Positions 2,840 to 24,477 of a DNA stretch of 64,000 nt are shown here, piece by piece. The stretch is taken from the NCBI GenBank assembly GCA_902601455.1, contig CACKNC010000001.1, forward strand, positions 32,240 through 96,239. The letters run 5' to 3'. The DNA is from an uncultured Alphaproteobacteria bacterium. Lineage in GTDB: Bacteria; Pseudomonadota; Alphaproteobacteria; HIMB59; GCA-002718135. Made by a program: the position numbers and the translations under genes. The first letter of the stretch is position 1. Each line of letters starts with the position of its first letter. The notes below the pieces were generated by a model, which saw only the letters and a program-made list of their open reading frames with translations, was not told where the DNA came from and did no database searches.

Positions 2840-3835
2840 TTATTTAACAAAGACCGCTGTATAGGGCTTTGGTTGGTTAGTTATTTTTCTATTATCCAAT
2901 CTTGAATAAATATCGGGTAAAATTTCTTTCATCCATTTATTTGAGTCAACAATAAACCCGGGTTTTTTTGAATCAATTAATAATGAATAAATATTTACTT
3001 GTTTGCTGGATACCTTTTCTATTAATTCATACCAGTCAGAATGAATATAGCCACATACAATATCAGGTTTAAAGCTAAGTATGGCTTTCACAATGTTATC
3101 TGTTTTTTTAACATCAAATTCTTGATCAACATTTATAAATTTTAATTTAAGGTCTTTTGATTTACTCTTAAAAACATTCTTAAAGTCAGTCAGTCTTGCA
3201 GTTTGTTTAGGTGATTTGATAATAGAGTCTAAATATAAAATATTATTTTTTTTTCCTTTTATAAATTTTAGTAACTCGCTAAATGATGGTTTAAGATTAA
3301 TACGATAGTTGCTGTTACTTAGCTTGATACTTGGAGTGTCTAGCAAACTTAATAAACAGGAAGTTTTTTTAAAATCATCAATTTCAGTTTTTTTTGTTAC
3401 CCCTGTTAATACTATTGCATCCAGATCATCCCATAACAAAACTGGTTTTTGTTTATGTGTAAAACTTCCTAATATAAATTCATGCCCATCAGAAATTACT
3501 TGTTTTTCAAAAGCAACTACCAGTTTTGTATAAAAGCTGTTATGAAATATTCCCCCGCCTACAACTTCACGATTATAAAAAAAACCTATACGTAAATGAG
3601 AAGTAAACCATGGTGCATTTTGAAGATAAGATCCTTTACCAACTTTTCTCTCAATTATTCCTTCAGCCTGTAAATCATTGAGAGTTTTAATAATAGTAAT
3701 TAACGAAAAGTCACAAAAAGTTTTGATATCATTCTGAGACTCTATTTTTTCTCCTTTTTTTAAACCTTTAGTTTTCCAATGTTTAAAAAGCATATTCCTT
3801 AATTGTAGATGTCTGCTTAGAAGTGGTTTATTCAT
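2840..3835 (-). CDS. GntR-family regulator of the AraR type (N-terminal GntR wHTH plus LacI/PBP1-like effector domain)
   Basis: The N-terminus SLITIIKTLNDLQAEGIIERKVGKGSYL is a GntR recognition helix and wing. The remaining ~250 aa (RIGFFYN..., DAIVLTG, ...) resemble a LacI-type sugar-binding domain. Confidence 0.6.
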   Translation of the reverse strand: MNKPLLSRHLQLRNMLFKHWKTKGLKKGEKIESQNDIKTFCDFSLITIIKTLNDLQAEGIIERKVGKGSYLQNAPWFTSHLRIGFFYNREVVGGGIFHNSFYTKLVVAFEKQVISDGHEFILGSFTHKQKPVLLWDDLDAIVLTGVTKKTEIDDFKKTSCLLSLLDTPSIKLSNSNYRINLKPSFSELLKFIKGKKNNILYLDSIIKSPKQTARLTDFKNVFKSKSKDLKLKFINVDQEFDVKKTDNIVKAILSFKPDIVCGYIHSDWYELIEKVSSKQVNIYSLLIDSKKPGFIVDSNKWMKEILPDIYSRLDNRKITNQPKPYTAVFVK

Positions 3836-4593
3836 AATAGAGATTCATCCCAGTTCATTTGGTTAGCTAAAATTCCACCATCGATATAGAGCATTTGACC
3901 AGTTATATATTCTGCCTCTTCAGAAGATAAGAAAACAGATGCTCCACCAATATCTTTTGGTAATCCAATTCGACCAAGAGGTATTTGTGATCTTAAAACT
4001 TGCTTGTTATTTCCTTTTTCTAATCCTTCTTTTGTTAGAGGTGTTTCTAATATTCCTGGACCAATACCATTGACCCTAATATTTTTGTCTGCAAGAGAAA
4101 TAGCAAGTGATCTAATCATCATTAACACTGCTCCTTTAGAGGTATCATATATGACACTATTTTTTTCTGCAGCTTTGGAATTGGAAGACCCAATACAAAG
4201 AATACTTTTATTTTTATTATTCTGCGATATTTTTGCAAAAGCTTGAGATGCAAACATATATCCACGAACATTTAAGTTGATCGTTTTATCAAAATCATTC
4301 TCAGATATATTTTCAAAATCTTGGTCTAAAAATGTGCCTGCATTATTTATTAAGGTATCTAAATTTCCCAATAAATCGAAAGATTTATTAACAAAATATT
4401 CAGCTCCTTGTACAGTTGATAAATCTGATTTTACATAATGGCATTCAGTTATTTCGTTTAGTTTTTTGAGTGCACCATTGTCATCAAGATGTGAATTAAT
4501 GACTATTCTTGCTCCTTTTTTTGCGAAAGCTTCAGCTATTCCGTAACCAATCCCATGAGTTGATCCTGAAATACACACACATTGATCCTTCAT
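3832..4593 (-). CDS. Short-chain dehydrogenase/reductase
   Basis: Motifs: ISGSTHGIGYGIA (TGxxxGxG-like), NNAG, S...YDTSK (YxxxK), IRVNGIGPG and a C-terminal GQMLYIDGG. There is a 4-nt overlap with the regulator gene. Confidence 0.85.
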   Translation of the reverse strand: MKDQCVCISGSTHGIGYGIAEAFAKKGARIVINSHLDDNGALKKLNEITECHYVKSDLSTVQGAEYFVNKSFDLLGNLDTLINNAGTFLDQDFENISENDFDKTINLNVRGYMFASQAFAKISQNNKNKSILCIGSSNSKAAEKNSVIYDTSKGAVLMMIRSLAISLADKNIRVNGIGPGILETPLTKEGLEKGNNKQVLRSQIPLGRIGLPKDIGGASVFLSSEEAEYITGQMLYIDGGILANQMNWDESLL

Positions 4594-4673
4594 AATTTCT
4601 TTCTTTCTTTTTGAATTCCTTGTATTTTTTGCCTACTTGATTAATATTATAACATAATAGGAAGGCTTTTTAT

Positions 4674-5852
4674 ATGCAAGCTAAACAACGTTTTACTAAT
4701 GTAACTCTTGTTACCCCAATTGGTGAAAAAAACCAAGATCTGCTGGTCAAAGATGATCTTATTGTGGATATTGTTGACAGAGATTCTTCAGTAAGCGATG
4801 ATTTTGAAATTTATGATGGGCGAGATAACTATATTTTCCCTGGGATGATTGATGTCCTTCAGCATGGTTTTTTAAACTACTTGTATGGTCATGCTGAAGA
4901 AAATTGCGCAGTTGATAATGCAAAGCTTTTACCTGAGGTAGGTGTAACAGGTTTTTTACCGTCAACACCTTGCTTGCCTCCAGAACAAACACATGAACTT
5001 CTGAATAATTTATCAAATGATATTGATAAATCAAAAGAGGGAGCAAGAATTCTCGGTATACATTCTGAAGGACCATGCTTTGCTTTACCTGGTGCACATA
5101 ATCCAAAAAATTTGCGTAATCCATCTGAAGAATTAGCAGAAGAATTAATTGATGCAACACATGGTAAATTAAAGGCAGTAACTATTGCTCCTGAGATGGA
5201 AGGATCAGAGATTTTCATTAAGAGATTAAAAAAAGATAACATATCTATTCATTTAGGTCATAGTGGAGCGAAACCTGAAGATGTTCCTATGTTTGCCGAT
5301 TGGGGAGTGGATGCAGTCACTCATATGTATGATGCATTACCAACTTATCCAGCCGATGATACAGGCGTTCATGTACTTTCTTTGACTGATGCATTAATTG
5401 CTGAGCCACGCATTGCTCTTGGGTTAATATGTGATGGCATTCATGTTCATCCACAATTAGTTGAGCTATTATCTCATCTTCCAAGTGATAGAGTTTTCTT
5501 AGAAACTGACTCTGTTAAAGGGTCTGGTTCACCTGTTCCTGTAAAATTTGAATTTTATCCTGGTCGTTGGTGTACAGTAGAAAAAGGTAAAGCATCAACT
5601 TACGATGGTCTTTTAGCAGGATCATCTTTAACTTCTATAGAAGGATTACAAAATTATCTAAAATACTCAAAAAAATCAATTAGCCAAGTTTCTATTGCAG
5701 CTAGTTTGGTTCCTGCAAGAGTAATAGGATTAGATGATAAAATGGGGAGTATTGAAAAAAATAAATTTGCTGATTTTATTTTATTAAGAAAAAATGATTT
5801 AGAAATTGCAGAAACATTTATTGCGGGAAAGTCAGTTTACAAAAGTGATTGA
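4674..5852 (+). CDS. NagA-family amidohydrolase (N-acetylglucosamine-6-phosphate-deacetylase-like)
   Basis: Order of motifs: PGMIDVLQHG, GIHSEGPCF, TIAPE, HLGHSGA, VTHMYDAL, ICDGIHVHP. This matches the NagA metal/substrate motif order. An RBS (AGGAAGG) lies upstream. Confidence 0.65.
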   Translation: MQAKQRFTNVTLVTPIGEKNQDLLVKDDLIVDIVDRDSSVSDDFEIYDGRDNYIFPGMIDVLQHGFLNYLYGHAEENCAVDNAKLLPEVGVTGFLPSTPCLPPEQTHELLNNLSNDIDKSKEGARILGIHSEGPCFALPGAHNPKNLRNPSEELAEELIDATHGKLKAVTIAPEMEGSEIFIKRLKKDNISIHLGHSGAKPEDVPMFADWGVDAVTHMYDALPTYPADDTGVHVLSLTDALIAEPRIALGLICDGIHVHPQLVELLSHLPSDRVFLETDSVKGSGSPVPVKFEFYPGRWCTVEKGKASTYDGLLAGSSLTSIEGLQNYLKYSKKSISQVSIAASLVPARVIGLDDKMGSIEKNKFADFILLRKNDLEIAETFIAGKSVYKSD

Positions 5853-5898
5853 TAAAAATCCTATATCTTTACGTTATCGCGATAAAGGAAATGTGCAT

Positions 5899-6306
5899 AT
5901 GGATTTTCATGGTGCAACAAATACTACTATAAATTTTATTATAGAAAAATATGGCATTGAAACAATGAATGACATTTTTAAAAAAGTAGGAAATGATGTT
6001 TATGCAGATATTAAGAAACATATACAGTCTGGAAATATCAATATGTTGGCTGAACATTGGCAACATTTTTTTGATCGAGAGGGTGCTGATTTTTCTATAT
6101 CCATTAAAGAGAATGAGATTATTTTAACTGTTAAAAGATGCACTGCTTATGAACATGTTAAAAAATTAGTTGGAAAAGTATCGCCAAATTTTTGTGATCA
6201 AACCATTAAAACTAATGAAGCAATTGCAGAAGGTACGCCTTATGAAATAAAAACGGAAATTTTGGGCGAAGCTTCATGTAAACAAATTATTCGTAAAAGA
6301 TTATGA
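5899..6306 (+). CDS. Hypothetical small Cys-motif protein (paralogue of the next gene)
   Basis: The track ORF starts at 5806, inside the NagA-like gene. The ATG at 5899 (MDFHGATN..., AAGGAAA upstream) aligns with the N-terminus of the paralogue at 6303. Shared pattern: xW.H...E...D...L.(K/M)..C......C......C...(I/V)(R/F)K. Confidence 0.45.
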   Translation: MDFHGATNTTINFIIEKYGIETMNDIFKKVGNDVYADIKKHIQSGNINMLAEHWQHFFDREGADFSISIKENEIILTVKRCTAYEHVKKLVGKVSPNFCDQTIKTNEAIAEGTPYEIKTEILGEASCKQIIRKRL

Positions 6307-6785
6307 TACCAAGTGACCATTTTACCCGCTTCTATAATGAAGTATTTAAATTTTTAGAAAAGCAAGGTGAAGAAGATTTAAAGAAATATTGGTTAGAGAT
6401 TAGTAAAAATCAAGAAAAACATACATTGGAATTGTTTAAAGAAAAAGGTTTACAAGGTATGTATGAATATTGGGATCATATTCGAATAGAAGAAAATTGT
6501 GATTTGGATTTAAAATTAGAAGAAGATAATCTTGAATTAAAAATGAATGTTTGTCCAAGTTTAAGTAAGGTTTTGGACAATGATGCAGAACCGATGAAGA
6601 GGTATTGTGATCATTGTGCAGGATGGATAGGTCCTATTATGGATAAGGTTGGATACCACCTAGTATATGATGTGATAGATAGAAATCAACCCCGGTGCGT
6701 AGTTAAAATTTTTAAAGATAAAAAAAAGGCTTTAGAAGAAGAGAAAAATGCAAGACTCTTGATGGATTGGCCTGGTAAAAAATGA
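6303..6785 (+). CDS. Hypothetical small Cys-motif protein (CPS...CDHC...C)
   Basis: 160 aa with a 4-nt overlap with the previous gene. The C-terminal half (MNVCPSLSKV...RYCDHCAGWIGPIM...PRCVVKIFK) aligns by eye with the previous ORF. Confidence 0.5.
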   Translation: MIPSDHFTRFYNEVFKFLEKQGEEDLKKYWLEISKNQEKHTLELFKEKGLQGMYEYWDHIRIEENCDLDLKLEEDNLELKMNVCPSLSKVLDNDAEPMKRYCDHCAGWIGPIMDKVGYHLVYDVIDRNQPRCVVKIFKDKKKALEEEKNARLLMDWPGKK

Positions 6786-6787
6786 TT

Positions 6788-8134
6788 TTAAGGAAGTTGA
6801 CGTCTTGAAAAAATTAATTGTCTTAAAAAAGTTCTCACACCCATCGCTCCTTCTTCTTTTATCAAAATAAAAGCATTCATAGATACAACAATTATAAAAG
6901 CGCAAATTGCAAAAAGAACTTCATAACTTCCAAGAGTTTTACCAAAAACAACTATGTTATTAGTATCAAGCCAGAGTACTAGATAACCAGCTAAAACTGT
7001 TGTTATTCCTGCAATTAGTCCATCTAAACTATATGCAAGTGACATAAATGATTCTTTATTATTACTCGGTACATAATTTAACATAAAAATGTATCCAATA
7101 GAGGCGCTTCCCCACATTAAGAAGCCAAATAAAAAGAAAACTATTCCTATTACATAACTTAGATAGGGAGTTTCTGAATTTATAAATGGAAGCATTAATA
7201 ATAAAATAATCTGCAAGCTTTGAAATATTACTCTAATGCCTCGGCATCCATAGTTATCAGTTATCCTTCCTACAATAAAACCACTACATGTACCACCAAT
7301 CAAAACGAGCGTAGAAGAAAATATTAATTCTCCAGTGGGTATATTCATTCTAATTTTAAAAAAAAGTGTCAGGAATATTGCTAGCACGGTAATGACTAAA
7401 TATTGAGTACCGGATGAAATTAAAAATAAATTAAAATTTTTATCTTTTGAAGCTGAAAATAAATTTTTTAAATAACCAAGATCATTGTCTCGATTAACAA
7501 TTTTTTTCCCACCTTTAATTTTTATGAGCAGTAAAGCCGAAATAAAACCAGAAATAATTGCAATTATAAAAACAGGGTAAAATCTATCTAATCCCACTCT
7601 ACTATCAAGCCACATTTTAATTGCATAAGATGCTGCAAGTGCAAAAGGTGTGCAAATAATACCATTTATTCCAATAATTCTTCCTCTCACGTCACGCGGT
7701 ATAAATTCTTGCATCCAAGGAACAAAAGCTGCTTCTGATAGGGATCGACATATTGCAAACATTAGCATTGCAAAAAACAATAAATAAAAAACTACTAATA
7801 AGTTATTTTGATAAAGAGGAACTATTAAAAAAATTAAAAGAAAAATATATCGTGTAAATAGAGTAGTTATTGATACAAGCTTACTTCCAAAATAAAGTGT
7901 AATTGGGATACTGATTAATGCTAATACTTGGCAAAAAGCCATGAGACTTCCAAGAATGCCTATTTCATCAGAGCTTAATCCTAATTCTACTGAATACAGA
8001 GTAAGGGGAGCAGCTACTGTACCTATAACAGCACACATTTGGAGTGCCGTAGAGTAATGGTAATAATTTATAACTTTTAACTTTTCAGGTTCATTGGAAA
8101 TAAGCTTAAACATTTTTATGTTACTTACTAACAA
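6788..8134 (-). CDS. MFS-type transporter
   Basis: 448 aa with about 12 hydrophobic segments and a central loop (KGGKKIVNRDND). An alternative start is at 8113 (MFKLIS). It is the last gene of the minus-strand operon. Confidence 0.7.
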   Translation of the reverse strand: MLVSNIKMFKLISNEPEKLKVINYYHYSTALQMCAVIGTVAAPLTLYSVELGLSSDEIGILGSLMAFCQVLALISIPITLYFGSKLVSITTLFTRYIFLLIFLIVPLYQNNLLVVFYLLFFAMLMFAICRSLSEAAFVPWMQEFIPRDVRGRIIGINGIICTPFALAASYAIKMWLDSRVGLDRFYPVFIIAIISGFISALLLIKIKGGKKIVNRDNDLGYLKNLFSASKDKNFNLFLISSGTQYLVITVLAIFLTLFFKIRMNIPTGELIFSSTLVLIGGTCSGFIVGRITDNYGCRGIRVIFQSLQIILLLMLPFINSETPYLSYVIGIVFFLFGFLMWGSASIGYIFMLNYVPSNNKESFMSLAYSLDGLIAGITTVLAGYLVLWLDTNNIVVFGKTLGSYEVLFAICAFIIVVSMNAFILIKEEGAMGVRTFLRQLIFSRRQLP

Positions 8135-9209
8135 TAAATGATTTAATTACGTGTTGGTTATTTTCATAACACCAACAAGTTGCTAGTATTTCATTATTTT
8201 TAAGTCTTACAAGTGATGGTTGTCCAAATTTAAGACTCCCAAATTGCTTAGTGATATTTGTTGAGTCACTACTCATATTTTCGTCTTTAAATAAATCTAG
8301 CTCTTCTAAAATTTCAAATTTATTATTTTCAATATTTACTTTTCTTATTATTAGCCCAGTGGGAAACTCTCTATGAGAGTGAATTGTTAAGATTATATTT
8401 TTATCAAGCCACATTAAATTAGATGCTTGAGCTTTAACCCCAGTATCTATTGCAGTATCAAAACTTTCTCCACCATCGTGTGAATAAACAATATGATTAT
8501 TCAAATTTATTTTTTTTACATTATCATAAGTCCAAAAGATTACTGCCACACCATTATTGTCTATTTCACAAAGTCGACATTCCCAAGTAGCAATTTCACC
8601 TTTAGGAGTATTAAAAAATTCAGATAATTTACTCCAAGTTTTTCCATTATCATCACTGTAGATGATCCATCCAGAATGACCGTTTTCTCCTAAATGAAAA
8701 GGTGGGCATGCACCAAGTATTCTGCCAGAGGATAATTGGATACATGGCCCTGATAGTTCTAGCGGTTTTTCTAAAACACTAAAACTATTTGGTATAGTCC
8801 AGCTTTCACCATTATCGTTTGAAAAACTTATTTTATTTTTTAAAGGGAGCACTTCGAAAGAAATAGGATCGACAATTGGTGTAAGAGGATCGGGTCTTAT
8901 AAATGCATATCCAGTTGCTATAAGACTTCCGTTTTGTAACAACAAAGGTTTTAGCGTATCAGTTTCTTCATGGTTATCATATATATGATTGTGAAGCTGC
9001 ATTGGTGTTGACCAAGTTCTTCCATTATCTTTGCTTTTTGTTACATATGGTCTCTGGTCTGAAGAGTCGAATGCCTGACCAATTGAAAAAATTATTAGTA
9101 GATCATTATTTGGTAATAAACTGACACCGGGAAAAATTCCTTGTCGACTTACTAAAAGAGGGTCTGGATTTTGATATACTATTATTTCTTCCTTTTTTTT
9201 CATTTCCAT
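8121..9209 (-). CDS. BNR/Asp-box repeat protein, sialidase (GH33)-like beta-propeller, no signal peptide
   Basis: Four Asp-boxes: SKDNGRTWS, SNDNGESWT, SDDNGKTWS, SHDGGESF. The N-terminus MEMKKKEEIIVYQNPD is not a signal sequence. Confidence 0.75.
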   Translation of the reverse strand: MEMKKKEEIIVYQNPDPLLVSRQGIFPGVSLLPNNDLLIIFSIGQAFDSSDQRPYVTKSKDNGRTWSTPMQLHNHIYDNHEETDTLKPLLLQNGSLIATGYAFIRPDPLTPIVDPISFEVLPLKNKISFSNDNGESWTIPNSFSVLEKPLELSGPCIQLSSGRILGACPPFHLGENGHSGWIIYSDDNGKTWSKLSEFFNTPKGEIATWECRLCEIDNNGVAVIFWTYDNVKKINLNNHIVYSHDGGESFDTAIDTGVKAQASNLMWLDKNIILTIHSHREFPTGLIIRKVNIENNKFEILEELDLFKDENMSSDSTNITKQFGSLKFGQPSLVRLKNNEILATCWCYENNQHVIKSFIVSK

Positions 9210-10015
9210 TGACTCTCAAACTCTTGATGAAATTGAAATCCTCTAATAGGTGTTGCTTCTCCGCGAGGCTTTGGAGCTACTGGATTCAAAGTGTGTTTTT
9301 TAGAGCCTCTAGCAATTTGTACTGAAAAAAAAGGCCATTTATTAAGATCTGCTTTTACATGTGAAGGAGAATATCTAAAAGTTATACCACATCTTGGTCG
9401 ATCTGAAGAATTCGCATCAGATCCGTGCAAAAGAGCATCAGAGTGAAGAGATATCTCTCCTGCTATTAAATTCATAAAAACAATTTTATTTTTATTAATT
9501 TGATCATCGTCAACTTCTTGATTAAGGATATAATCACTGTTGTTGTTCTCAGTATGCAAATATTTTTTTATCTTATGACTACCTGAAACAATCTTCATTG
9601 CTGAATTATCCTTGTCTGTATCAAAAATTGCAAGCCAAACCGTTACTGAATTTGAAGGTTTTAAAGGCCAATACTGAGAGTCTTGATGCCAAGGAACAAT
9701 ACTTTTACTCAAGGCAGGTTTATAAAAAAATTGCCCACCCCACAAATAAAAATTTGGCCCAAGTAAATCTTCTACATAATCTAAAATTTCAGGAGTGTGT
9801 GCTACATCATAAAATTTTTTACTAGCCTTATGCCACATATTTGTTTTATTGATATCGACGCTACTAGGTAAACGTGTTTTTAATTCATTAAAAAGTAATT
9901 GTAATTCTTCTACCCCTCTTTCAGAAAAAACAGGTAGGTTCTTTATAAAGCCCTCACTATCATATTGAGAAATTTCAGATTTAGTTAACCTTCGAATATT
10001 TTTACTTATTTCCAT
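9200..10015 (-). CDS. PhyH-family Fe(II)/2-oxoglutarate dioxygenase
   Basis: VPWHQDSQYW gives the HxD motif, ISLHSDALLHGSDAN the distal His, and RCGITFRY the 2OG Arg. 271 aa. Confidence 0.75.
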   Translation of the reverse strand: MEISKNIRRLTKSEISQYDSEGFIKNLPVFSERGVEELQLLFNELKTRLPSSVDINKTNMWHKASKKFYDVAHTPEILDYVEDLLGPNFYLWGGQFFYKPALSKSIVPWHQDSQYWPLKPSNSVTVWLAIFDTDKDNSAMKIVSGSHKIKKYLHTENNNSDYILNQEVDDDQINKNKIVFMNLIAGEISLHSDALLHGSDANSSDRPRCGITFRYSPSHVKADLNKWPFFSVQIARGSKKHTLNPVAPKPRGEATPIRGFQFHQEFESQWK

Positions 10016-10862
10016 TATTGTAATCTGTTATTAATTTTTTAAATTTTATTAATTCTTTTTGATCAGCTAACACAGAATGTTTTTTTAAAGGAAATTTTTT
10101 AAAACTTACATCTGCCTGATATTTTTTAAATGCTTTAATTCTTTCTTTTTGAATATCTTGAAAAATTTTATCAAAATTTCTATAACTTTTTGCATGTCTT
10201 GGTGTTTTTGAAGAGTCATTGTGATAACCTAAAATATCTTCAGAAAATAAAAACTGTACATCACTTTTGCTTCCAGAACCTATAGATATAGTTAACATGT
10301 TAGTTATTTTGTTAATTTCAGCCAATATATCTGCTGGAATACACTCTACCTCTACAGCCCAGCATCCAATGTTTTCTAGTTCTTTAATTTCTTCATAAAT
10401 TTTAATGGCTTCTTTCAGTTTTTTTCCTACCGGTTTTACACCACCTGTCCAGGTAGATTTCATTGGAACAAATCCGACATGTCCTTGAAGAGGAATATTA
10501 AATTCACTGATGTATTTTATAAAATTTATATTCCATGAATTTGTATGAATGGAGTCTACGCCTAATTCAATTAGTTTAAAACATTTTCTAGCAATACTCT
10601 CTTTTGATTCATGTTCTGTATATTTAATGCCACAAGTTAGAAATGTATTTGGAGCAGCTTCACGAATTTCTTTTAATCTATCGGCACCTGTTATTAATAA
10701 ATCAATATCTGCTAATTCTGCTGCTGCTGCTTCCTCAGGCGTAATTACATTTATTTGTGTTAGTTTCGTTCTGCCCTTAAGTTCGAGTAAATCTTTGACA
10801 GTGTAGTTCCTATAACCTGCTTGATGAGCTAGTGAATATACTTTCTTGTATTTTTTTTTCAT
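10002..10862 (-). CDS. Divergent PanB (ketopantoate hydroxymethyltransferase) family protein, paralogue 1
   Basis: GHVGFVPMKSTWTGGVKPVGKK, EVECIP, ISIGSGSKSDVQFLFSEDILG and PRHAKSY align by eye with E. coli PanB GHLGLTPQS..GGYKVQGR, LECVP, IGIGAG..DGQILV.HD..G and PKFAKNF. Confidence 0.6.
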   Translation of the reverse strand: MKKKYKKVYSLAHQAGYRNYTVKDLLELKGRTKLTQINVITPEEAAAAELADIDLLITGADRLKEIREAAPNTFLTCGIKYTEHESKESIARKCFKLIELGVDSIHTNSWNINFIKYISEFNIPLQGHVGFVPMKSTWTGGVKPVGKKLKEAIKIYEEIKELENIGCWAVEVECIPADILAEINKITNMLTISIGSGSKSDVQFLFSEDILGYHNDSSKTPRHAKSYRNFDKIFQDIQKERIKAFKKYQADVSFKKFPLKKHSVLADQKELIKFKKLITDYNNGNK

Positions 10863-10865
10863 TTA

Positions 10866-11767: not shown

Positions 11768-11789
11768 GTTATCATGTAAACATAATAAC
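11768..11789. promoter_or_regulatory. Candidate operator in the divergent promoter: imperfect palindrome GTTATCATGT-AA-ACATAATAAC
   Basis: 9 of 11 arm positions pair. The core ATGT..ACAT fits the generic GntR GT-N-AC operator theme. The right half plus one base (AAACATAATAACT, 11778..11790) recurs exactly at 24546..24558. Confidence 0.3.
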
Positions 11790-13345: not shown

Positions 13346-13348
13346 TTT

Positions 13349-17969: not shown

Positions 17970-17973
17970 AATT

Positions 17974-18903
17974 TTATAACGTCTCCAAAAATTTTATTCC
18001 TGTTAAATCATTTTCTTTAGTTAGTATTTTTAATTCATTTATAATAGTTTTTTCATTCTCTGAATCAATAATACTATTAAAAGGTCTTCGAACATAACCA
18101 GAATCTAAATTAAGCCATTTTAATCCCATTTTAATAAAAGGATACCCTGATTTTTTTAGAGCAAATAAAATAATAATATTTATTTTTTCTTGGATTTTTT
18201 TTGCCTCATTTATATTGTTATTTTTTACTTGTTTGTACATTTTAACAAATAATTCAGGCATTAAATTATAGAAAGATCCAATAATTCCATCTGCTCCTGA
18301 AATTAAACCTGATAAGGCCATTTCATCCATGCCTGAATAAATTTTAAAACTTTCCCCAATTTCTTTTTTAATTTTACTGAAGTTAAAGTGTGTAGGTGCA
18401 GTATATTTTACACCTTTCACATTTTTAATGGATGCTAATCTTTTAAGCATATCTAAATCCATTAAATTTGCATGACTGATATTATATACAGTCATTGGTA
18501 AATTGGTTGACTCAGAAATATCTGCGTAATATTTAAATATTTCATCGTTAGAAAAACCGTAATAAAAAGGGGGAAGGGCAGATAAAGCATCAACGCCAAC
18601 TTTTTCAGCATATTGACCAAGGTCAGTTGTAATTTTTGTGCCAATAGATCCAATATGTGCAATTACTGGAACTCTTCCGTTTACTTCCTCTACAATAATT
18701 TCAATCGCTTGTTTTTTTTCTTCTTGAGACATTAAAAAAGTTTCACCTGTACTGCCTGTTATATAAAGCCCATTTACTCTCGCAGAAATAAGATAGTTTA
18801 CCGTTTTTCTAATGCCCTCTTTATTAATACTCTCATCTTTATTAAAAGAAGTAATCATAGCAGGTATAACACCGTTAAAATTGTTAGGATCGAATTTCGT
18901 CAT
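17974..18903 (-). CDS. N-acetylneuraminate-lyase-like member of the DapA family
   Basis: GLYITGSTGE, VIAHIGS, PPFYYGFS, MTVYNI, VKGVKYT, GADGIIGSFYN and RRPF align by eye with E. coli NanA GLYVGGSTGE, LIAHVG, PFYYPFS, VVYNIP, LKQTS, GADGGIGSTYN and RKPF. Confidence 0.7.
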   Translation of the reverse strand: MTKFDPNNFNGVIPAMITSFNKDESINKEGIRKTVNYLISARVNGLYITGSTGETFLMSQEEKKQAIEIIVEEVNGRVPVIAHIGSIGTKITTDLGQYAEKVGVDALSALPPFYYGFSNDEIFKYYADISESTNLPMTVYNISHANLMDLDMLKRLASIKNVKGVKYTAPTHFNFSKIKKEIGESFKIYSGMDEMALSGLISGADGIIGSFYNLMPELFVKMYKQVKNNNINEAKKIQEKINIIILFALKKSGYPFIKMGLKWLNLDSGYVRRPFNSIIDSENEKTIINELKILTKENDLTGIKFLETL

Positions 18904-19911
18904 TTAGTTTATTTCAGGTAAATCAATTAAATGACAAGATGCATAGTGCTCATTATCATTAGTTGTATATTTTTTTAATTTTGGTGTTTCAGATTTGCAA
19001 ATATCTTTTGCTTTTGGACACCTAGGATGAAATGGACATCCTTTAGGGGGATTTACAGGACTTGGAACATCACCCTCTAGAATTATTCTTTTTGTTTTTT
19101 TATCTAAATCAGCAACTGGTATTGCAGAAATTAGTGCTTCTGAGTAAGGATGAAGAGTGTTCTTATACAAGTCTTCAGACTTACATAACTCTACTATTCT
19201 TCCTAGATACATTACGGCGATTCGATCACATAAATATTCAGTGACACTTAGATCATGTGTAATAAACAAATAAGTTAAGTTTTTATCTTTTTTTAATTGC
19301 ATCAATAGCTGAAGAACTTGTGCTTGAATTGATACATCCAGCGCACTAACCGCTTCATCACAAACAATTAATTCTGGCTCTAAACACAAAGCTCTAACAA
19401 TCCCAATTCTTTGACGCTGCCCACCAGAAAATTCATGTGGGTATCTATCCATGTATTCTCTTCGCATATTCACGGACTCCAAAAGATCTCCAATAATTTT
19501 TCTTCTCTCTTCTTTTGATTTTATTCCAAATTTTTTAAGAGGATCTTGTAAAGAACCAAAAATTGTGAACGAAGGATTTAAGGATGAGTGAGGGTCTTGA
19601 AATACAATTTGTAATTTTTTTCTAAATTGATCCATATCTATTTTTTTTAATGATGTAATTTCAGTCTCTTCACCTTCTGTTGAAATATATTTCACTTCAC
19701 CTGCAGTAGGTTCAACAAGTCTTAGTATGGCTTTTCCTAATGTTGTTTTCCCACAACCACTTTCACCTGCAAGACCTAAAACTTCACCTCTAAAGATATC
19801 TAAATCAACTCCATCCACAGCCAATACATGGCCAACAGTTTGATTAAATATTCCTGCCTTCACAGGAAAGTGAACCTTCACTCCTTTTAATTTAAGTATC
19901 TCTTTTTCCAT
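18904..19911 (-). CDS. ABC transporter ATPase, Dpp/Opp family (DppF-like)
   Basis: Walker A GESGCGKTT, signature FSGGQRQR, Walker B LIVCDEAVSALD, and a C-terminal Cys-rich oligopeptide-ABC extension. I place the start at MEKEILKLKG (19911); the track ORF extends to 19965. Confidence 0.85.
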   Translation of the reverse strand: MEKEILKLKGVKVHFPVKAGIFNQTVGHVLAVDGVDLDIFRGEVLGLAGESGCGKTTLGKAILRLVEPTAGEVKYISTEGEETEITSLKKIDMDQFRKKLQIVFQDPHSSLNPSFTIFGSLQDPLKKFGIKSKEERRKIIGDLLESVNMRREYMDRYPHEFSGGQRQRIGIVRALCLEPELIVCDEAVSALDVSIQAQVLQLLMQLKKDKNLTYLFITHDLSVTEYLCDRIAVMYLGRIVELCKSEDLYKNTLHPYSEALISAIPVADLDKKTKRIILEGDVPSPVNPPKGCPFHPRCPKAKDICKSETPKLKKYTTNDNEHYASCHLIDLPEIN

Positions 19912-20920
19912 TATAGCTCTCAAAAAATTGTTCATATTTATGACATCGAATTTGATGTGTCTCATTAATTTGTTCTATTTCTGGCATTACATCACAACTT
20001 TCAGTTTTCCAATTACACCGAGGGGCAAATTGACAACCTACTGGCCTGTTGTATGGATCTGGAGTTGATCCTTTAATAGGGTTTATATCTTGATCTTTTC
20101 CTCTTCCAAGAACTGGAACAGATTCAAGCAAAGCTTTTGTATAAGGATGTGTTGGTCTTCTAAGAACATCATCTGCAGTTCCTGCTTCAACAATATTTCC
20201 CATATACATAACAGCAACATTATCCGCTAATTCTGCAACAACACCCATATCGTGAGTTATTAAAATAATTGCTGTATCATTTTCTTTTTTTAATTTATCC
20301 ATTAATTCAAATATTTGAGCTTGAATGGTAACATCCAAAGCTGTTGTAGGTTCATCAGCAATTAAAATTTTTGGATTACACGCCATAGCCATTGCTATCA
20401 TCGCTCTTTGACGCATTCCACCTGAATAACTATGCGGATATTCATCAACTCTTTTTTCAGGAAGCGGAATTCCCATATCACTAAGCAAAGATATGCATTT
20501 TTCTCTAATTTGTTTTTTGTTTAAATTTGTGTGATACTTGAGATTTTCACTTATTTGAAAACCAACGGTGTAAACTGGATTAAGAGCAGTCATCGGATCT
20601 TGAAAAATCATAGCAATGTCAGAGCCTCTAATAGATCTCATTTCCTTCCCATTTTTTTCAAGTTTTTCTATATTGATTTTTTTATCATCTTTTTGAAAAA
20701 TAATTTCCCCTTCTTCAATCCTTGATAAAGTAGGAAGGAGTTGCATTATCGTTGCTGCGGTTACGCTCTTGCCACAACCACTTTCACCAACGATACATAG
20801 CGTTTTCCCTTTTTTAACATCAAATGAAACTCCATTAACAGCTTTGTTACATCTGTTATTTGTATAAAAGAAAGTTTTTAAGTTTCTTACAGAAAGAGCT
20901 ATATTGTTTTTATCACTCAT
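19892..20920 (-). CDS. ABC transporter ATPase, Dpp/Opp family (DppD-like)
   Basis: GESGCGKSV, YSGGMRQR, ILIADEPTTALD and ITHDMG. Confidence 0.85.
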   Translation of the reverse strand: MSDKNNIALSVRNLKTFFYTNNRCNKAVNGVSFDVKKGKTLCIVGESGCGKSVTAATIMQLLPTLSRIEEGEIIFQKDDKKINIEKLEKNGKEMRSIRGSDIAMIFQDPMTALNPVYTVGFQISENLKYHTNLNKKQIREKCISLLSDMGIPLPEKRVDEYPHSYSGGMRQRAMIAMAMACNPKILIADEPTTALDVTIQAQIFELMDKLKKENDTAIILITHDMGVVAELADNVAVMYMGNIVEAGTADDVLRRPTHPYTKALLESVPVLGRGKDQDINPIKGSTPDPYNRPVGCQFAPRCNWKTESCDVMPEIEQINETHQIRCHKYEQFFESYNGKRDT

Positions 20921-20922
20921 AA

Positions 20923-21837
20923 TTATCCTTGTTGCGATGGATCAGTTGAATCTCGCAAACCATCTCCAATAAAATTTACACACAGTACGAATACAGAAAT
21001 TACAATACCCACAGGACCCCACATCCACCAGTAGTTTTGGAGAACTAAAATATCCTGAGCTACGTTTAAAATATTTCCCCAAGTTGGAATATTTAATGGA
21101 ACACCTAAGCCTAAAAAACTTAGCCCAGCTTCTGTCAAAATAAACATTGCAGTTGATAAAGTAATATTTACCATAATCGGGCTTAGAGCATTTGGTAACA
21201 TGTGTTTGTAGCAAATAGTAAAGGTCGATAATCCAAAACTTCTTAATGCTTGAACATATTCCTCTTCTCTTAGTGATAGCATTCGAGCTCTGGCTAACCT
21301 GTACATACCTCCCCAACCAGTTACAATAAAAATTGCCATTAAATTAAATAAGCTTTGACCTGTTATTGAGACTAGTAAGAGAACTAGAATAATTTGTGGG
21401 AAAGACATAAATATCTCAGATATTCTCAAAGCAATAACATCGATCCAGCCACCTTTATATCCTGCATAACATCCGACAGCGATACCAACTAATGCGGATA
21501 GAATAGCACTTCCTAAACCTATAAATATAGAAACTCTTCCCCCAAAAAGAACTCGCGTAAACACATCTCTACCTGTGTTATCTGTTCCAAACCAATGCTC
21601 CAGCGAAGGAGATTGTCTCATTGATCGAAGATCTACTCGCATTGGATCGTAGGGCGAAAGAAGTGGTGCAAAAATTGTTGCTAATAAAATAATACTAAAA
21701 ACAATTAAACCAAAAACTGCTAATTTGTTATTAACAAATTTGCTTATAATTCGACTTCTTTTTTTTGTAGAAAAAGATTTAGACTCTTCTATTTCTCTAA
21801 TCTTATCAAATTTTTTATCTAAAGAAGATTTTGCCAT
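20923..21837 (-). CDS. ABC transporter permease, DppC/OppC-like
   Basis: 304 aa with multiple TM segments. HWFGTDNTGRDVFTRV is the typical DppC N-terminal motif; an EAA-loop region is present (ALRSFG). Confidence 0.85.
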   Translation of the reverse strand: MAKSSLDKKFDKIREIEESKSFSTKKRSRIISKFVNNKLAVFGLIVFSIILLATIFAPLLSPYDPMRVDLRSMRQSPSLEHWFGTDNTGRDVFTRVLFGGRVSIFIGLGSAILSALVGIAVGCYAGYKGGWIDVIALRISEIFMSFPQIILVLLLVSITGQSLFNLMAIFIVTGWGGMYRLARARMLSLREEEYVQALRSFGLSTFTICYKHMLPNALSPIMVNITLSTAMFILTEAGLSFLGLGVPLNIPTWGNILNVAQDILVLQNYWWMWGPVGIVISVFVLCVNFIGDGLRDSTDPSQQG

Positions 21838-22802
21838 TATTCTTTACCTAATCTTACTCTAGGATCTATTAAAGCTGTTAAAATATCAATCACAAGACTA
21901 GCTGTTAAGACAACAAAAACATACATCAGGGATATTGTCATGACCAAAGGATAATCTGAGGCGCGAACTGATCTAATAAACATGCTGCCAATGCCAGGCC
22001 ATTGATATACTTGTTCTATTATAGTTGAACCACCTATCAAGAGTGGAAGTCTAAATCCAATTAAGACCACAACAGGCGTTAAGGCAACTCGAAAACCATG
22101 AAGTATATTAATTCGCCATTCTGGCATTCCTTTTGATCTTGCGGTTGTAATAAATTCTCTAGACAGGACATCTAGCATAGATGATCTTGCATAACGCATC
22201 GCCCCAGCAGTCATCATCAAAGCTAAAACCATTGATGGTAAAACAATATTAGGAATTCGGTCCCATACATTCTCGTAATGTGGAAGTAATCTTCCACCAA
22301 CAGGTAGCCATCTAAGTTCTATTGCGAATAAAAGTATTGCAACTAATCCAAAAAAAAACTCTGGTATAGAAACGCCTGCCATACCTGCAACTGTAAGAGA
22401 GTTATCAGTTCCGGATCCTCTTTTAAGAGCGCTTATAACACCTAATGAGCAACCTATTATTGTCGAAAAAATAAGAGCAACTATTGATAATTCTAAAGTT
22501 GCCGGAATAGTTTTTGCCATGATTTCTGAAATAGCTACTCCTCCAGCCATTGAATAGCCCATATCTCCTTGAACCATGCTAGTGAGCCATAGCCAGTAAC
22601 GTGTAAGAAAGCTCTGATTTAATCCATATGCTTCTCGCATTGCATTAAGTTGTTCTTCTGTAATTGTTGAAGCTAATTCTGGACTAATCATATGCGAGAC
22701 AGCGTCACCAGGAGCAAGTTCAAGGCCTAAGTAAACAAGGAAGCTTATGACAAGAAGCATGGGAAAGAAAATAAAAAGACGTTGAATAGTGTATGTTACC
22801 AC
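21837..22802 (-). CDS. ABC transporter permease, DppB/OppB-like
   Basis: 321 aa. N-terminus YTIQRLFIFFPMLLVISFLVY and C-terminus DILTALIDPRVR are typical of the DppB family. Confidence 0.85.
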   Translation of the reverse strand: MVTYTIQRLFIFFPMLLVISFLVYLGLELAPGDAVSHMISPELASTITEEQLNAMREAYGLNQSFLTRYWLWLTSMVQGDMGYSMAGGVAISEIMAKTIPATLELSIVALIFSTIIGCSLGVISALKRGSGTDNSLTVAGMAGVSIPEFFFGLVAILLFAIELRWLPVGGRLLPHYENVWDRIPNIVLPSMVLALMMTAGAMRYARSSMLDVLSREFITTARSKGMPEWRINILHGFRVALTPVVVLIGFRLPLLIGGSTIIEQVYQWPGIGSMFIRSVRASDYPLVMTISLMYVFVVLTASLVIDILTALIDPRVRLGKE

Positions 22803-22828
22803 GGTTTCTTCCCAGATATAAATTCAGA

Positions 22829-22855
22829 AAACTGAGGCCATGTAGGCCTCAGTTT
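22829..22855 (-). terminator. Intra-operon hairpin between the binding-protein gene and the permease genes (attenuating terminator candidate)
   Basis: Perfect 11-bp stem AAACTGAGGCC / GGCCTCAGTTT with loop ATGTA. On the coding (minus) strand the 3' arm runs into TTTTCTGAATTTAT. Confidence 0.4.
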
Positions 22856-22869
22856 ATTAGTTTTTTAAA

Positions 22870-24477
22870 CTATGGTTTTGGATACTGCATAATCCACATC
22901 ATACGAGTGTATGGGATATCAACAGCTTTAGTCATCATGTTATCCATAGCATCTAATGCAGCAACGTCGGCTACGTTTTTAGTAAATCCGTAGTCCATTT
23001 TTCCTGCAGCAGCATTTTTAATTAAGTTACCATCACCATCATAACTAGGATAAGCAATGATATCAAAACCAGCTGCTCCTCCATGATAGTTATCGAATGG
23101 TTCAAATTTAGCGTAGTCGTTCATTTTAACCTCAGTTATATGAAACGCTCCAGATCCTACTGGTTTTTGCCAGAAGTCACTTTGTTGCCATTTTAATGGG
23201 TCAGTATCACCTAATAAGTGCTCAGGTAAAATCGCAAACTGCGTGAAAGTAGTTAGAATATTAGGATCAATTTTTGATAACTCTAATGTAATAACTCTAT
23301 CAGCAATATTATATTTAATACCTGCAACATCATTAGTTGAACCATCTTTAAATGCATCAGCACCTTTTATAGATCCAACAGTGTTACCAATTAAAGCGTG
23401 CATTTGAGGAGCTTTCATCGCAGAACGAATACTGAAAGCAACATCTTCAACTGTTACAGCTTCTCCATCGTGGAAAGTAAGACCTTCTTTTAATTTAAAA
23501 GTTAAAGTCATACCATCACTAGCAAGATCAAAGCTCTCCGCCATAGATGTTCCGATTGGCTGCATTGCTCCATCAGCAACAAGAAGTCTATCAAAAACTA
23601 CTTTGTTGTGAATCCAAAGACCAAGGTTGTACCAAGGTTGTTCAAAGAACTCAACTGGACCAGTATTTGTTTGCATTGTGCCACCACTTACGTTCCAATT
23701 AGTAATATCCCAATTGTAGTTGTATTGTGCGTTTCCATATGCTCCACCATTTCTATCTACTTTGTTACTTTCGTAGATGAATAACTTTTGATAATATAAT
23801 GGGCAGATGTTCACTTGGTCCATTTGGTACTGTTGTATTTCAAAGAAATACGGTTTTAGTACTTCAGGATCTGCACTAGAATTGATCTTTTCAATCATAG
23901 CATCCATTTTTGGATCACCAGGTGTTTGTGGATTTAGACCAGTTTTAAAAGTATTGTAATACTCTTGCATAACCATTGCTGCACGTGCACCATAACCTAA
24001 GTCATAGTCAACTGCTGCAGGTCCATTCACACCATCTGCAGGAACAGAATTTAATTGAGCTCCTACATCACCTTGTAAAAGACGATATGTCATTTTAACA
24101 CCAACATCAGCAAAGTAAGCTTGAACTGCTGCCATTAGATCTGCAGTTAACTGATCTCCATAATAGAAAACCATATCAAGTTCTCTATCAGCGTCCCAAT
24201 TAGCTTCAGCCAAAAGTTGACGAGCTTTTTCAGGATTGTAACTGTAATCTGGTAAATTAGGTGCTTTAAGTGGACCGTTTGGTAATAAACTGTCCGCTGG
24301 AATAATTTGACCTTCAAATAATGTTTCACCGATTGTCTCCATGTCAATAGCCATACATAAAGCTTGTCTGACACGAGGATCGGAAAGTTGGTTACTATTA
24401 GTAGGCTGTGCTGATACAGATGAGATAAACATCAGATGAGCTAATACAGCTACTATAACCACATATAGTTTTTTCAT
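22870..24477 (-). CDS. Periplasmic solute-binding protein, family 5 (peptide/nickel/oligosaccharide type)
   Basis: 535 aa with signal peptide MKKLYVVIVAVLAHLMFISSVSA. It is the first gene of the Dpp-type operon, with family-5 size and architecture. Confidence 0.8.
   Translation of the reverse strand: MKKLYVVIVAVLAHLMFISSVSAQPTNSNQLSDPRVRQALCMAIDMETIGETLFEGQIIPADSLLPNGPLKAPNLPDYSYNPEKARQLLAEANWDADRELDMVFYYGDQLTADLMAAVQAYFADVGVKMTYRLLQGDVGAQLNSVPADGVNGPAAVDYDLGYGARAAMVMQEYYNTFKTGLNPQTPGDPKMDAMIEKINSSADPEVLKPYFFEIQQYQMDQVNICPLYYQKLFIYESNKVDRNGGAYGNAQYNYNWDITNWNVSGGTMQTNTGPVEFFEQPWYNLGLWIHNKVVFDRLLVADGAMQPIGTSMAESFDLASDGMTLTFKLKEGLTFHDGEAVTVEDVAFSIRSAMKAPQMHALIGNTVGSIKGADAFKDGSTNDVAGIKYNIADRVITLELSKIDPNILTTFTQFAILPEHLLGDTDPLKWQQSDFWQKPVGSGAFHITEVKMNDYAKFEPFDNYHGGAAGFDIIAYPSYDGDGNLIKNAAAGKMDYGFTKNVADVAALDAMDNMMTKAVDIPYTRMMWIMQYPKP

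Follow-up and report, generated by a model that had tools for sequence, protein, structure and literature searches.

We analysed a 64-kb stretch of contig CACKNC010000001.1 (referred to as the window, whose positions are used as coordinates throughout) from an uncultured alphaproteobacterium of the HIMB59 lineage. Within the interval 2840..24477, a sequence-only reading had proposed that an apparent peptide ATP-binding cassette (ABC) importer locus handles a sugar acid or an amino-sugar conjugate. The region appears to be a SAR11-type version of a conserved alphaproteobacterial island for the uptake and catabolism of sialic (nonulosonic) acids, a full explanation to which we give a probability of about 60% on comparative sequence evidence. 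Its core, a sialic or nonulosonic acid importer coupled to a NanA-type lyase, is likely, as indicated by gene synteny across four phyla and by intact residues for binding N-acetylneuraminic acid (Neu5Ac). In the proposed route, a circularly permuted family-5 substrate-binding protein (SBP) would capture the free sugar acid in the periplasm and pass it to a DppBCDF-type ABC importer, and a NanA-type class I aldolase encoded directly downstream would split it into pyruvate and an N-acyl-hexosamine (N-acetylmannosamine, ManNAc, in the case of Neu5Ac). The proposal of a sugar-acid rather than a peptide substrate could be narrowed to sialic or nonulosonic acids because the orthologous loci are nanA-linked, while nothing was found to support its glycopeptide, muropeptide or peptidoglycan-derived variants.

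The related loci carry most of this argument. Related loci are numbered with the prefix L. A search of genome contigs picked up generic family-5 motifs, and about 8 of the at least 80 loci that it matched were true relatives. In every locus examined, across four phyla, a NanA-type lyase gene was adjacent to orthologues of the ABC system that were 45-91% identical to those of the window. Full-length relatives of the SBP and DppBCDF beside such a lyase were found in Paradevosia, Marinovum, Devosia, Hyphomicrobiales, Halanaerobiales, Lachnospiraceae, Oscillospiraceae and Granulicatella (nanA-linked loci L001, L002-4, L005, L008, L009, L010, L013, L014 and L015). With the transporter genes of L001, L002, L010 and L013, the DppBCDF proteins share 55-79% identity. 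Paradevosia and Marinovum have the arrangement of the window, in which the NagA-like gene is divergent from the genes for a short-chain dehydrogenase/reductase (SDR), the regulator and RidA, with the D-serine-deaminase-like and HpcH genes following. In both genera the SBP-DppBCDF genes are followed by the NanA-like and class III aminotransferase genes, and in Marinovum then by a class IV aminotransferase gene and a distant dihydrodipicolinate synthase (DHDPS) homologue, DHDPS2. The marine contig L005, whose SBP is 84% identical, has NanE (PF04131) between the lyase and the class III aminotransferase.

The Halanaerobiales and Firmicutes loci have a different gene company. The Halanaerobiales locus (L010) encodes the SBP, DppBCDF, NanA, a flavin adenine dinucleotide (FAD) flavoprotein and NanE; the Lachnospiraceae locus (L013) NanE, a ROK kinase, RpiR, a GDSL esterase, the transporter, the FAD flavoprotein, YhcH and NanA; the Oscillospiraceae locus (L014) NanA, RpiR, the transporter, the FAD flavoprotein, NagA and AGE; and the Granulicatella locus (L015) a ROK kinase, RpiR, NanM, NanA, the transporter and NanE. 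Judging from this gene content, the Firmicutes and Halanaerobiales loci with the orthologous transporter are ordinary nan clusters. The flavoprotein (FAD_binding_2/Succ_DH_flav_C, 538-630 aa) follows the transporter genes or NanA (L010:11219-12895, L013:15638-17530, L014:9873-11489), and the window has none.

In Devosia, Maritalea and Rhizobiales, the genes for the BNR protein, MlrC, PhyH, FA-hydroxylase, NagA-like protein, SDR, RidA, D-serine-deaminase-like enzyme and HpcH aldolase travel together. The conserved company of the BNR set and of the transporter/NanA set supports that the whole 25 kb is one conserved, sialic-acid-linked island. By gene content, the window island is a variant without NanE, NanK and the second BNR, which appears to have gained two PanB-like and extra PhyH genes. 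It had been stated earlier that nanK, nanE and nagB are absent; neither nanE nor a ROK kinase (nanK), nor AGE, NanM or YhcH, was found anywhere in the 64 kb, and no glucosamine-6-phosphate deaminase (NagB-type) family was matched among the open reading frames (ORFs) scanned, nagB itself not having been queried by tblastn. The view that this is not the textbook sialic acid pathway holds for the window. In a metagenome survey, one of the leading environmental carriers of nanE was a Pelagibacter species (PMC10570557).

The lyase contains all the NanA motifs that had been recognised in it by eye, namely GSTGE (residue 50), PFYYGFS (112), VYNI (139) and GADGIIGSFYN (203). Its best 33 PDB matches were all N-acetylneuraminate lyases (NAL; E ~3e-51), with DHDPS ranking lower. 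It scored 273.7 against the NCBIfam NanA model NF003164 (cut-off 281, 7 bits short), 170.5 against dapA and 229.9 against TIGR00683 (cut-off 382). When aligned to S. aureus NAL 4ah7, in which the chain numbering is offset by +5, the equivalents of Lys165, Tyr137, Ser47/Thr48, Asp191, Glu192 and Ser208 were all kept: the Schiff-base lysine lies in VKGVKYT, the tyrosine in VYNI, Asp191 and Glu192 in SGMDEM, and Ser208 in IIGSFYN. In NAL, Glu192 binds the C8/C9 diol of sialic acid, and Asp191 and Ser208 bind further hydroxyls (PMC3014015). DHDPS2 retains the Schiff-base lysine and has lost the sugar-binding Asp-Glu pair. The SBP has its nearest relatives in nan clusters, and NanA is the group to which the lyase belongs, so that neither falls where the sequence-only reading would have had to be given up, that is, among dipeptide binders and non-carbohydrate enzymes.

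The SBP matches in Pfam, NCBIfam and PDB were all in two pieces with their order swapped. Residues 27-229 correspond to positions ~263-479 of canonical SBPs and residues 284-530 to positions ~33-254, and the signal peptide is directly followed by 'LSDPRVRQA', which normally lies mid-chain, the usual N-terminal half coming afterwards. The Lachnospiraceae (L013:9836-11542) and Oscillospiraceae (L014:3816-5636) orthologues, from nan clusters of gut Firmicutes, have the canonical order; they are 41-47% identical to the SBP, and each of their halves is 37-47% identical to it. When the Lachnospiraceae protein was rotated at residue 326, it aligned to the SBP without gaps at 46.5% identity over 507 residues; the two are collinear only after this rotation. 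Just one or two residues link the old C-terminus (...NYNWDIQNWKIK) to the old mature N-terminus (GVLYSNGGPTEFFETPW...), while the termini of the permuted chain are at approximately canonical mature position 270. Going by the domain boundaries of OppA/DppA, this position would be the first crossover between the two lobes, leaving a single covalent hinge.

Hundreds of full-length homologues of the SBP were found, the best 120 of which are 50-91% identical and ~540 aa long, and the permuted order is common to the Halanaerobiales SBP and all alphaproteobacterial homologues. Few representatives of clusters at 50% identity are collinear with the SBP, and the nearest canonical-order proteins (E 1e-114) score as well as other permuted clusters, which suggests that the permutation occurred within one orthologous transporter lineage. 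The AlphaFold (AF2) model of the SBP is confident across the junction (mean pLDDT 92.3, pTM 0.87). In Foldseek searches, ~240 of its 535 residues superposed (TM ~0.36) on any solved family-5 SBP, SatA included, a limit expected for a permutant under sequential alignment. An assembly artefact was considered for the swapped halves and rejected, given the same order in the 120 listed full-length homologues, the signal peptide ahead of the 'second' half and the confident model over the junction. Sequence comparison and structure prediction thus show the SBP to be a family-5 protein that has undergone a clean, natural circular permutation, an arrangement that was found neither among solved structures nor in the literature searched.

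The spacer that separates the SBP gene from DppB (22803..22869) contains an inverted repeat rich in G+C (CTGAGGCC ... GGCCTCAG), with a T-run after it on the coding strand. This hairpin looks like an intercistronic terminator or attenuator, which would give an excess of SBP transcript; partial terminators are frequent after SBP genes.

Sialic-acid ABC importers with a family-5 SBP are already known as ST3/SatABCD, which were assigned a single origin in SBP_bac_5, centred on Actinobacteria and Pasteurellaceae, in the 2021 classification (PMC8461474). Like ST3 (H. ducreyi SatA, PDB 5Z99; C. glutamicum SiaEFGI; B. breve), the window system combines an SBP_bac_5 (cluster C) protein with a Dpp/Opp-type ABC core, in a nan cluster beside nanA (PMC8461474). 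Unlike ST3, the window lineage has a permuted SBP, which matches the SatA entries 5z99, 5za4 and 5yyb at E 1.2e-8, and the canonical-order Lachnospiraceae protein (L013) matches SatA at E 1.5e-15 and rank 27, in both cases below DppA, CtaP and NikA. The window has separate DppB, DppC, DppD and DppF genes, whereas Sat has a fused SatC (transmembrane plus nucleotide-binding domains), and the present lineage is found in Alphaproteobacteria, Halanaerobiales and Clostridia, whereas ST3 is found in Actinobacteria and Pasteurellaceae. This comparison covers SatA, the one family-5 SBP for sialic acid with a solved structure, and the lineage may lie inside or outside ST3. The Granulicatella (L015) and Lachnospiraceae (L013) proteins were checked for a SatA-like character, which would place the lineage in ST3; SatA was not among their best matches. 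What would be new here is a family-5 sialic-acid-type ABC importer with a permuted SBP and a non-canonical downstream gene set.

The predicted sugar-binding fold of the regulator is consistent with this function. The regulator had been described as a GntR-type helix-turn-helix (HTH) fused to a LacI/PBP1-like effector domain, the architecture of AraR. Sequence searches missed this architecture, the Pfam GntR match being 19.5 bits (cut-off 27) and the C-terminal domain having no match in Pfam, NCBIfam or phmmer searches of PDB, and structure prediction supports it. The AlphaFold model (58 homologues, pLDDT 84.3) shows a winged HTH, with a helix-helix-helix, strand-strand unit at residues 8-71, and then a two-lobed alpha/beta domain. 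The 50 best Foldseek matches of the latter were LacI-family regulators (RbsR, LacI, AscG) and ribose-binding proteins (target-normalised TM 0.52-0.70), and they include 3tb6, the effector domain of AraR (ranks 19 and 38). The regulator resembles B. subtilis AraR in its predicted two-part architecture, a winged HTH, probably of the GntR type, with a LacI/GalR-type effector domain that matches 3tb6 structurally, but has no detectable similarity to it at the sequence level. Its family is small (206 database clusters at E<=1e-5) and occurs only in loci of this type, and a homologue at 81% identity is named Pelagibacteraceae.

In the window as a whole, the 9-mer AACATAATA has 7 matches where 2.78 would be expected. 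Four of the seven copies (4651..4659 and 11779..11787 and 24547..24555 on the plus strand, 25603..25611 on the minus strand) are in the island's four intergenic regions that bear promoters, which total ~415 bp and in which ~0.02 would be expected. Four related contigs also have the core TTATGTTT ahead of their SBP gene, and the element contains a -10-like CATAAT. It may serve the AraR-like regulator as an operator or act as a common promoter element, and we treat it as a lead that is not established. With its probable GntR-type HTH and its LacI-type sugar-binding domain, the regulator would probably control the operons via AACATAATA-type sites.

For the hexosamine released by the lyase, we tentatively propose, by analogy, a kinase-free oxidative branch for N-acetylhexosamine. 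Because NanK and NanE are lacking in the genome segment, the hexosamine is proposed to be processed without phosphorylation. The SDR would oxidise C1 of the N-acyl-hexosamine to give an N-acetyl-hexosaminate, from which the NagA-like deacetylase, having lost residues that bind the 6-phosphate, would take off the acetyl group. A D-serine-deaminase-like pyridoxal 5'-phosphate (PLP) enzyme, aided by RidA, would then eliminate water and ammonia to give a 2-keto-3-deoxy-hexonate, and the HpcH-type aldolase would split this product into pyruvate and glyceraldehyde. The five genes (SDR, NagA-like, D-serine-deaminase-like, RidA and HpcH), whose products would add up to a chemically complete route, stay together in all alphaproteobacterial versions of the island; the loci showing this are those of Paradevosia, Marinovum, Maritalea, a Rhizobiales metagenome-assembled genome (MAG) and a SAR11-like contig. 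Two SDRs had been counted earlier; the interval 2840..24477 has one classical SDR, and the second is a fragment at the window edge. Of the six observations in the sequence-only reading, the other five held.

The NagA-like protein matched only NagA in PDB, scored 201.6 against TIGR00221 (cut-off 225.65) and, as had been noted, has EGP, GHS, THMYDA, DGIH and TDS in the order found in NagA. In comparison with NagA 9up6, its metal ligands and catalytic Asp and His are kept (equivalents of Glu131, His195, His216, His143 and Asp273, in EGP, GHS, THMY, HNP and TDS). The phosphate site reads THMYDALPTYPADDTG in the window protein and THLYNAMPYITGREPG in NagA, with an additional 5-aa insertion: Asn-Ala ... 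Gly-Arg-Glu-Pro-Gly of NagA is replaced by Asp-Ala ... Pro-Ala-Asp-Asp-Thr-Gly. The insertion is also present in Devosia, Maritalea and the Rhizobiales MAG; the Arg is absent in the latter two, and in Devosia it is one position away. NagA from the canonical Oscillospiraceae nan cluster has neither the insertion nor the Arg change. In NagA, the conserved Arg and Asn contact the phosphate, and mutation of the Arg abolishes activity (PMC6016474). Compared with the E. coli-type Nan pathway, the window shares a NanA-type lyase with all Neu5Ac-contacting residues and a NagA-like protein with the full catalytic set, and its relatives carry NanE and ROK. It differs in having no NanK or NanE, in a NagA-like protein without the phosphate-binding Asn and Arg, and in the extra SDR, D-serine-deaminase-like, RidA and HpcH proteins.

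The analogy is with the Ong pathway for oxidised chitin in Pseudoalteromonas, in which an amidohydrolase, a fold-type III PLP deaminase and RidA (OngB, OngC and OngD) convert 2-acetamido-2-deoxygluconate (GlcNAc1A) to 2-keto-3-deoxygluconate (KDG), RidA being genetically essential (PMC9537276). Common to both are the deacetylation of an N-acetyl-2-amino-aldonate by an amidohydrolase, a fold-type III PLP enzyme of D-serine-deaminase kinship yielding a 2-keto-3-deoxy acid, and RidA (PMC9537276). OngB, however, belongs to the D-aminoacylase branch whereas the window enzyme is NagA-like, a comparison made at the level of published descriptions; a KDG kinase follows in Ong, whereas the window locus has an HpcH-type aldolase and no kinase; and Ong has a transporter of the sodium/solute symporter (SSS) type. 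An oxidative route for ManNAc (through N-acetylmannosaminate or a glucosaminate ammonia-lyase) was looked for in the literature, with no relevant result.

Beyond the core, the BNR propeller, MlrC-like protein, PhyH, FA_hydroxylase, both aminotransferases and DHDPS2 are conserved accessories, as judged from their distribution among the related loci. The BNR protein indeed has four Asp-boxes (SKDNGRTW at 59, SNDNGESW at 130, SDDNGKTW at 185 and SHDGGESF at 243) and no signal peptide, its N-terminus not being hydrophobic (maximum Kyte-Doolittle value 1.29, against 2.86 for the SBP). It resembles GH33 exo-sialidases and BNR_2 proteins in its six-bladed-propeller type and its four Asp-boxes, but it is predicted to be cytoplasmic and lacks the F/YRIP arginine, reading GIFPGV where sialidases have F/YRIP. 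The closest structure, Dfer_1899 (5hx0, with no function described), reads AAFPSV, and sialidase matches were weak (E ~4e-6). Relatives are named 'sialidase family protein' by NCBI, a label that the missing arginine leaves unjustified for this protein. The BNR gene is no stray, since its homologues share their contigs with the SBP and the regulator. In Devosia rhodophyticola, Maritalea, the Rhizobiales MAG and the SAR11-like contig, their neighbours are MlrC, PhyH, MFS, a second BNR paralogue and the small-protein pair, with NagA-like, SDR, regulator, RidA, D-serine-deaminase-like and HpcH genes; the loci of Maritalea and the Rhizobiales MAG additionally contain FA_hydroxylase, NanE and ROK kinase genes. 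The second paralogue, ~26% identical to the first, lies between the MFS and small-protein genes (L092:12434-13552, L089:13385-14512, L091:13388-14509), and the window is without it.

Several observations weigh against sialic acid uptake and catabolism as the full explanation. SatA matches the SBP at E 1.2e-8, below many peptide, nickel and opine binders, and thus shows no specific closeness; the lyase falls slightly under the curated NanA cut-off. In the oxidative branch, the 2-amino-2-deoxy-mannonate derived from ManNAc has the L configuration at C2, and D-serine-deaminase-type enzymes act on D-configured substrates. OngC acts on D-configured substrates as well (PMC9537276). Maritalea and the Rhizobiales MAG carry NanE and ROK alongside the SDR/NagA-like/D-serine-deaminase-like/HpcH module, which argues that the module is no simple substitute for the canonical branch, and NanK, NanE and NagB could be encoded elsewhere in the genome of the window. 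About 10 conserved genes have no assigned step, so that the true substrate may be more elaborate than Neu5Ac.

The last point leads to the strongest alternative, which takes the imported molecule to be a small sialoside or a nonulosonic acid of decorated or diamino type (pseudaminic, legionaminic, O-methyl or N-acyl variants from bacterial or algal surfaces), with the NanA-type lyase still making the central cut. Such acids are commonly displayed by marine bacteria. The BNR protein, MlrC-like amidase, PhyH, FA_hydroxylase and the two aminotransferases would strip decorations or remove the second amino group, and the conservation of these genes and DHDPS2 with the core in several genera fits this role. 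The locus also has two nitrogen-removal systems (the aminotransferases, and the PLP deaminase with RidA) for the one nitrogen in Neu5Ac, and the stereochemical objection to ManNAc disappears if the D-serine-deaminase-like enzyme sees a D-configured 2-amino acid, as from an L-altro-configured hexose. Yet the lyase retains Glu192 and Asp191, the residues by which Neu5Ac is held at its C8/C9 diol and at further hydroxyls, and the orthologous Firmicutes transporters are in ordinary Neu5Ac clusters (NanE, NanK, NanM, YhcH); we regard this alternative as rather unlikely.

Taken as annotated, the locus would encode a Dpp-type di- or oligopeptide importer beside amino-acid catabolism (MlrC, aminotransferases, PhyH, D-serine deaminase with RidA, aldolases). 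The best NCBIfam matches of the permeases and ATPases are indeed dipeptide/oligopeptide systems, the best PDB matches of the SBP are peptide binders, and the locus does encode an MlrC/M81 peptidase and RidA, together with two aminotransferases and a D-serine-deaminase-like enzyme. All Dpp/Opp model scores, however, were under the curated cut-offs (51.6 for the SBP against the DppA model NF043070, cut-off 1005; 30 against OppA, cut-off 947; the permease and ATPase models likewise), every examined orthologous transporter is nanA-linked, often together with nanE, nanK, nanM and YhcH, in four phyla, the regulator has a sugar-repressor fold, and the NanA-like and NagA-like enzymes have no role in peptide use. 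This makes a peptide importer very improbable, and the 'Dpp/Opp peptide transporter' annotations of the lineage, which extend over hundreds of database clusters, are probably wrong if the sialic-acid reading is right.

Equally remote is the import of an anhydro- or dehydro-sialic acid (2,7-anhydro-Neu5Ac or Neu5Ac2en), from which oxidoreductases of the locus would restore Neu5Ac before NanA, as NanOx/NanY do in Ruminococcus gnavus and E. coli. Two GFO/IDH/MocA genes and extra SDRs flank HpcH in Paradevosia, Marinovum, Maritalea and L092, just past the left edge of the window, NanOx belongs to the GFO/IDH/MocA superfamily (PMC8461474), and the FAD flavoprotein after the ABC genes is conserved in L010, L013 and L014. 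But the Marinovum GFO protein best matched generic sugar/inositol dehydrogenases in PDB (E ~1e-14), with no NanOx/YjhC entry above threshold, no IT-sialidase is present, and the oxidoreductases are encoded beyond the window edge. The PanB-like, class IV aminotransferase and MlrC genes were also considered as a sign of pantothenate or branched-chain amino-acid metabolism, an idea that was dropped because the PanB-like pair is absent from non-SAR11 versions of the island.

The interval 2840..24477 contains 23 genes in five operon-like blocks (Table 1). The first, on the minus strand (4593->2437), comprises SDR, the 331-aa regulator and RidA, and the second, on the plus strand (4674->6785), the NagA-like amidohydrolase and two small proteins. 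The third, on the minus strand (11720->6788), has two PanB-like genes, PhyH, the BNR_2 propeller and a major facilitator superfamily (MFS) transporter; the fourth, on the plus strand (11808->16671), two PhyH, the class IV aminotransferase, DHDPS2 and the MlrC/M81 protein; and the fifth, on the minus strand (24477->16668), the family-5 SBP, DppB, DppC, DppD, DppF, the NanA-like lyase and the class III aminotransferase. Approximately half of the genes of the interval (three PhyH, two PanB-like, both aminotransferases, DHDPS2, MlrC/M81 and MFS) did not figure in the sequence-only reading.

Table 1 Predicted genes of the island in the 64-kb window, with supporting observations.
Feature	Position	Strand	Observation
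Second SDR, C-terminal 104 aa, truncated by window edge	3..314	+	tblastn, 70% identity to Marinovum SDR upstream of HpcH
HpcH/HpaI-type class II 2-keto-3-deoxy-acid aldolase	332..1156	+	Kept in L001, L002, L090-L092
Fold-type III PLP D-serine-deaminase-like enzyme	1156..2436	+	PDB 3gwq (D-serine deaminase) match, E 8.7e-85; kept in L001, L002, L090-L092
RidA imine deaminase	2437..2850	-	Order SDR-regulator-RidA same in L001, L002, L089-L092
AraR-architecture regulator	2840..3835	-	Predicted structure and Foldseek
SDR, aldose-1-dehydrogenase type	3832..4593	-	Best matches glucose 1-dehydrogenases
NagA-like N-acetyl-amino-sugar deacetylase (predicted)	4674..5852	+	PDB matches NagA only
Two small conserved proteins, 166 and 160 aa	5806..6306 and 6303..6785	+	Kept in L089-L092
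MFS transporter	6788..8134	-	MFS kept in L089-L092
BNR_2 propeller	8121..9209	-	Pfam BNR_2, 5.2e-13; BNR kept in L089-L092
PhyH dioxygenase	9200..10015	-	PhyH kept in L089-L092
Two PanB-like genes	10002..11720	-	Among relatives, pair seen only in SAR11-like L092
Two PhyH genes	11808..13345	+	Profile match
Class IV aminotransferase	13349..14269	+	With second DHDPS, follows NanA and class III aminotransferase in Marinovum
Distant DHDPS-family protein (DHDPS2)	14274..15191	+	Schiff-base Lys kept, Asp-Glu sugar pair lost
MlrC/M81 metallopeptidase-like protein	15184..16671	+	Kept in Devosia, Maritalea, Rhizobiales MAG, L005
Class III aminotransferase, glutamate-1-semialdehyde (GSA) aminomutase/GntE-like, co-operonic with lyase	16668..17969	-	Adjoins lyase in Marinovum (66% identical) and L005 (85%)
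NanA-type N-acetylneuraminate lyase, class I pyruvate aldolase (predicted)	17974..18903	-	PDB, NCBIfam, residues
DppF-like ATPase	18904..19965	-	Pfam ABC_tran, oligo_HPY
DppD-like ATPase	19892..20920	-	Pfam ABC_tran, oligo_HPY
DppC-like permease	20923..21837	-	Pfam BPD_transp_1, OppC_N
DppB-like permease	21837..22802	-	Pfam BPD_transp_1
Family-5 SBP (SBP_bac_5, PF00496), signal peptide, circularly permuted; proposed sialic/nonulosonic-acid binder	22870..24477	-	Pfam/NCBIfam/PDB
Membrane di-iron FA_hydroxylase-family protein, upstream of SBP	24604..25602	-	L005 (89% identical), Maritalea, Rhizobiales MAG (last two beside NanE and ROK)

The locus extends beyond this interval at both ends, and the window starts inside the second SDR gene (1..317). 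In relatives, the genes corresponding to the region left of the window edge are an SDR, a GFO/IDH/MocA, another SDR and another GFO/IDH/MocA, which indicates that part of the island lies outside the window, and L092 has an SDR and a GFO gene at the position matching that edge. The two small proteins are cysteine-rich and belong to no Pfam family; their overlapping genes directly adjoin the one for the NagA-like protein in loci of Devosia, Maritalea, Rhizobiales and the SAR11-like type. MsvR, through its C-terminal part, was weakly matched by the first (E 5.7e-5). The PanB-like tandem paralogues match ketopantoate hydroxymethyltransferase only from residue ~65 on, and this pair with the three PhyH dioxygenases forms an insertion that was met only in SAR11-type versions of the island (compare L092:5763-7101). 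In L092, the two plus-strand PhyH genes are split into three short ORFs and may be pseudogenes.

At the right end, the island is flanked by tRNA-Gln (25725..25799) and tRNA-Arg (26476..26552). An SH3-domain ORF with a TTG start (25859..26629, minus strand) overlaps tRNA-Arg on the opposite strand, its true start probably being further downstream, and an NmrA-like protein is encoded at 27488..28234. The region 42323..58845 encodes a DmdA-like GcvT-family protein, a dimethylglycine-dehydrogenase-like fusion, electron-transfer flavoprotein (ETF) alpha/beta, an ETF-ubiquinone oxidoreductase (ETF-QO)-like protein, SoxB and SoxA, and formate-tetrahydrofolate ligase. This methyl-group and one-carbon (C1) oxidation gene set is typical of SAR11; GroEL is also encoded in the window, the G+C content of which is ~31%. 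Together with the homologue of the regulator named Pelagibacteraceae, these features suggest that the DNA comes from a SAR11-type alphaproteobacterium.

Bacteria of the SAR11 type are usually seen as specialised in very small molecules, and sialic-type acids are common on microbial and animal surfaces. If the proposed function is true, a dedicated high-affinity system for nine-carbon sialic-type acids would open to these bacteria a further class of dissolved organic carbon and nitrogen. The list of sialic-acid transporters ST1-ST8 may miss, or fail to recognise, this lineage. The permuted SBP and its 46%-identical canonical-order orthologues in orthologous operons would offer a clean natural experiment on a two-lobed, hinge-bending protein with relocated chain ends, and the kinase-free oxidative branch, if real, would be a new way of using N-acetylhexosamines. 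Rather doubtful as a whole is the most far-reaching possibility, that abundant marine Alphaproteobacteria, including SAR11 relatives, have an undescribed nonulosonic-acid route in which a ninth, independently evolved transporter lineage, with a single-hinge SBP permuted at a crossover between the lobes, would be combined with a NanA-type lyase, a kinase-free oxidative branch and an accessory set for decorated or diamino acids from microbial surface glycans.

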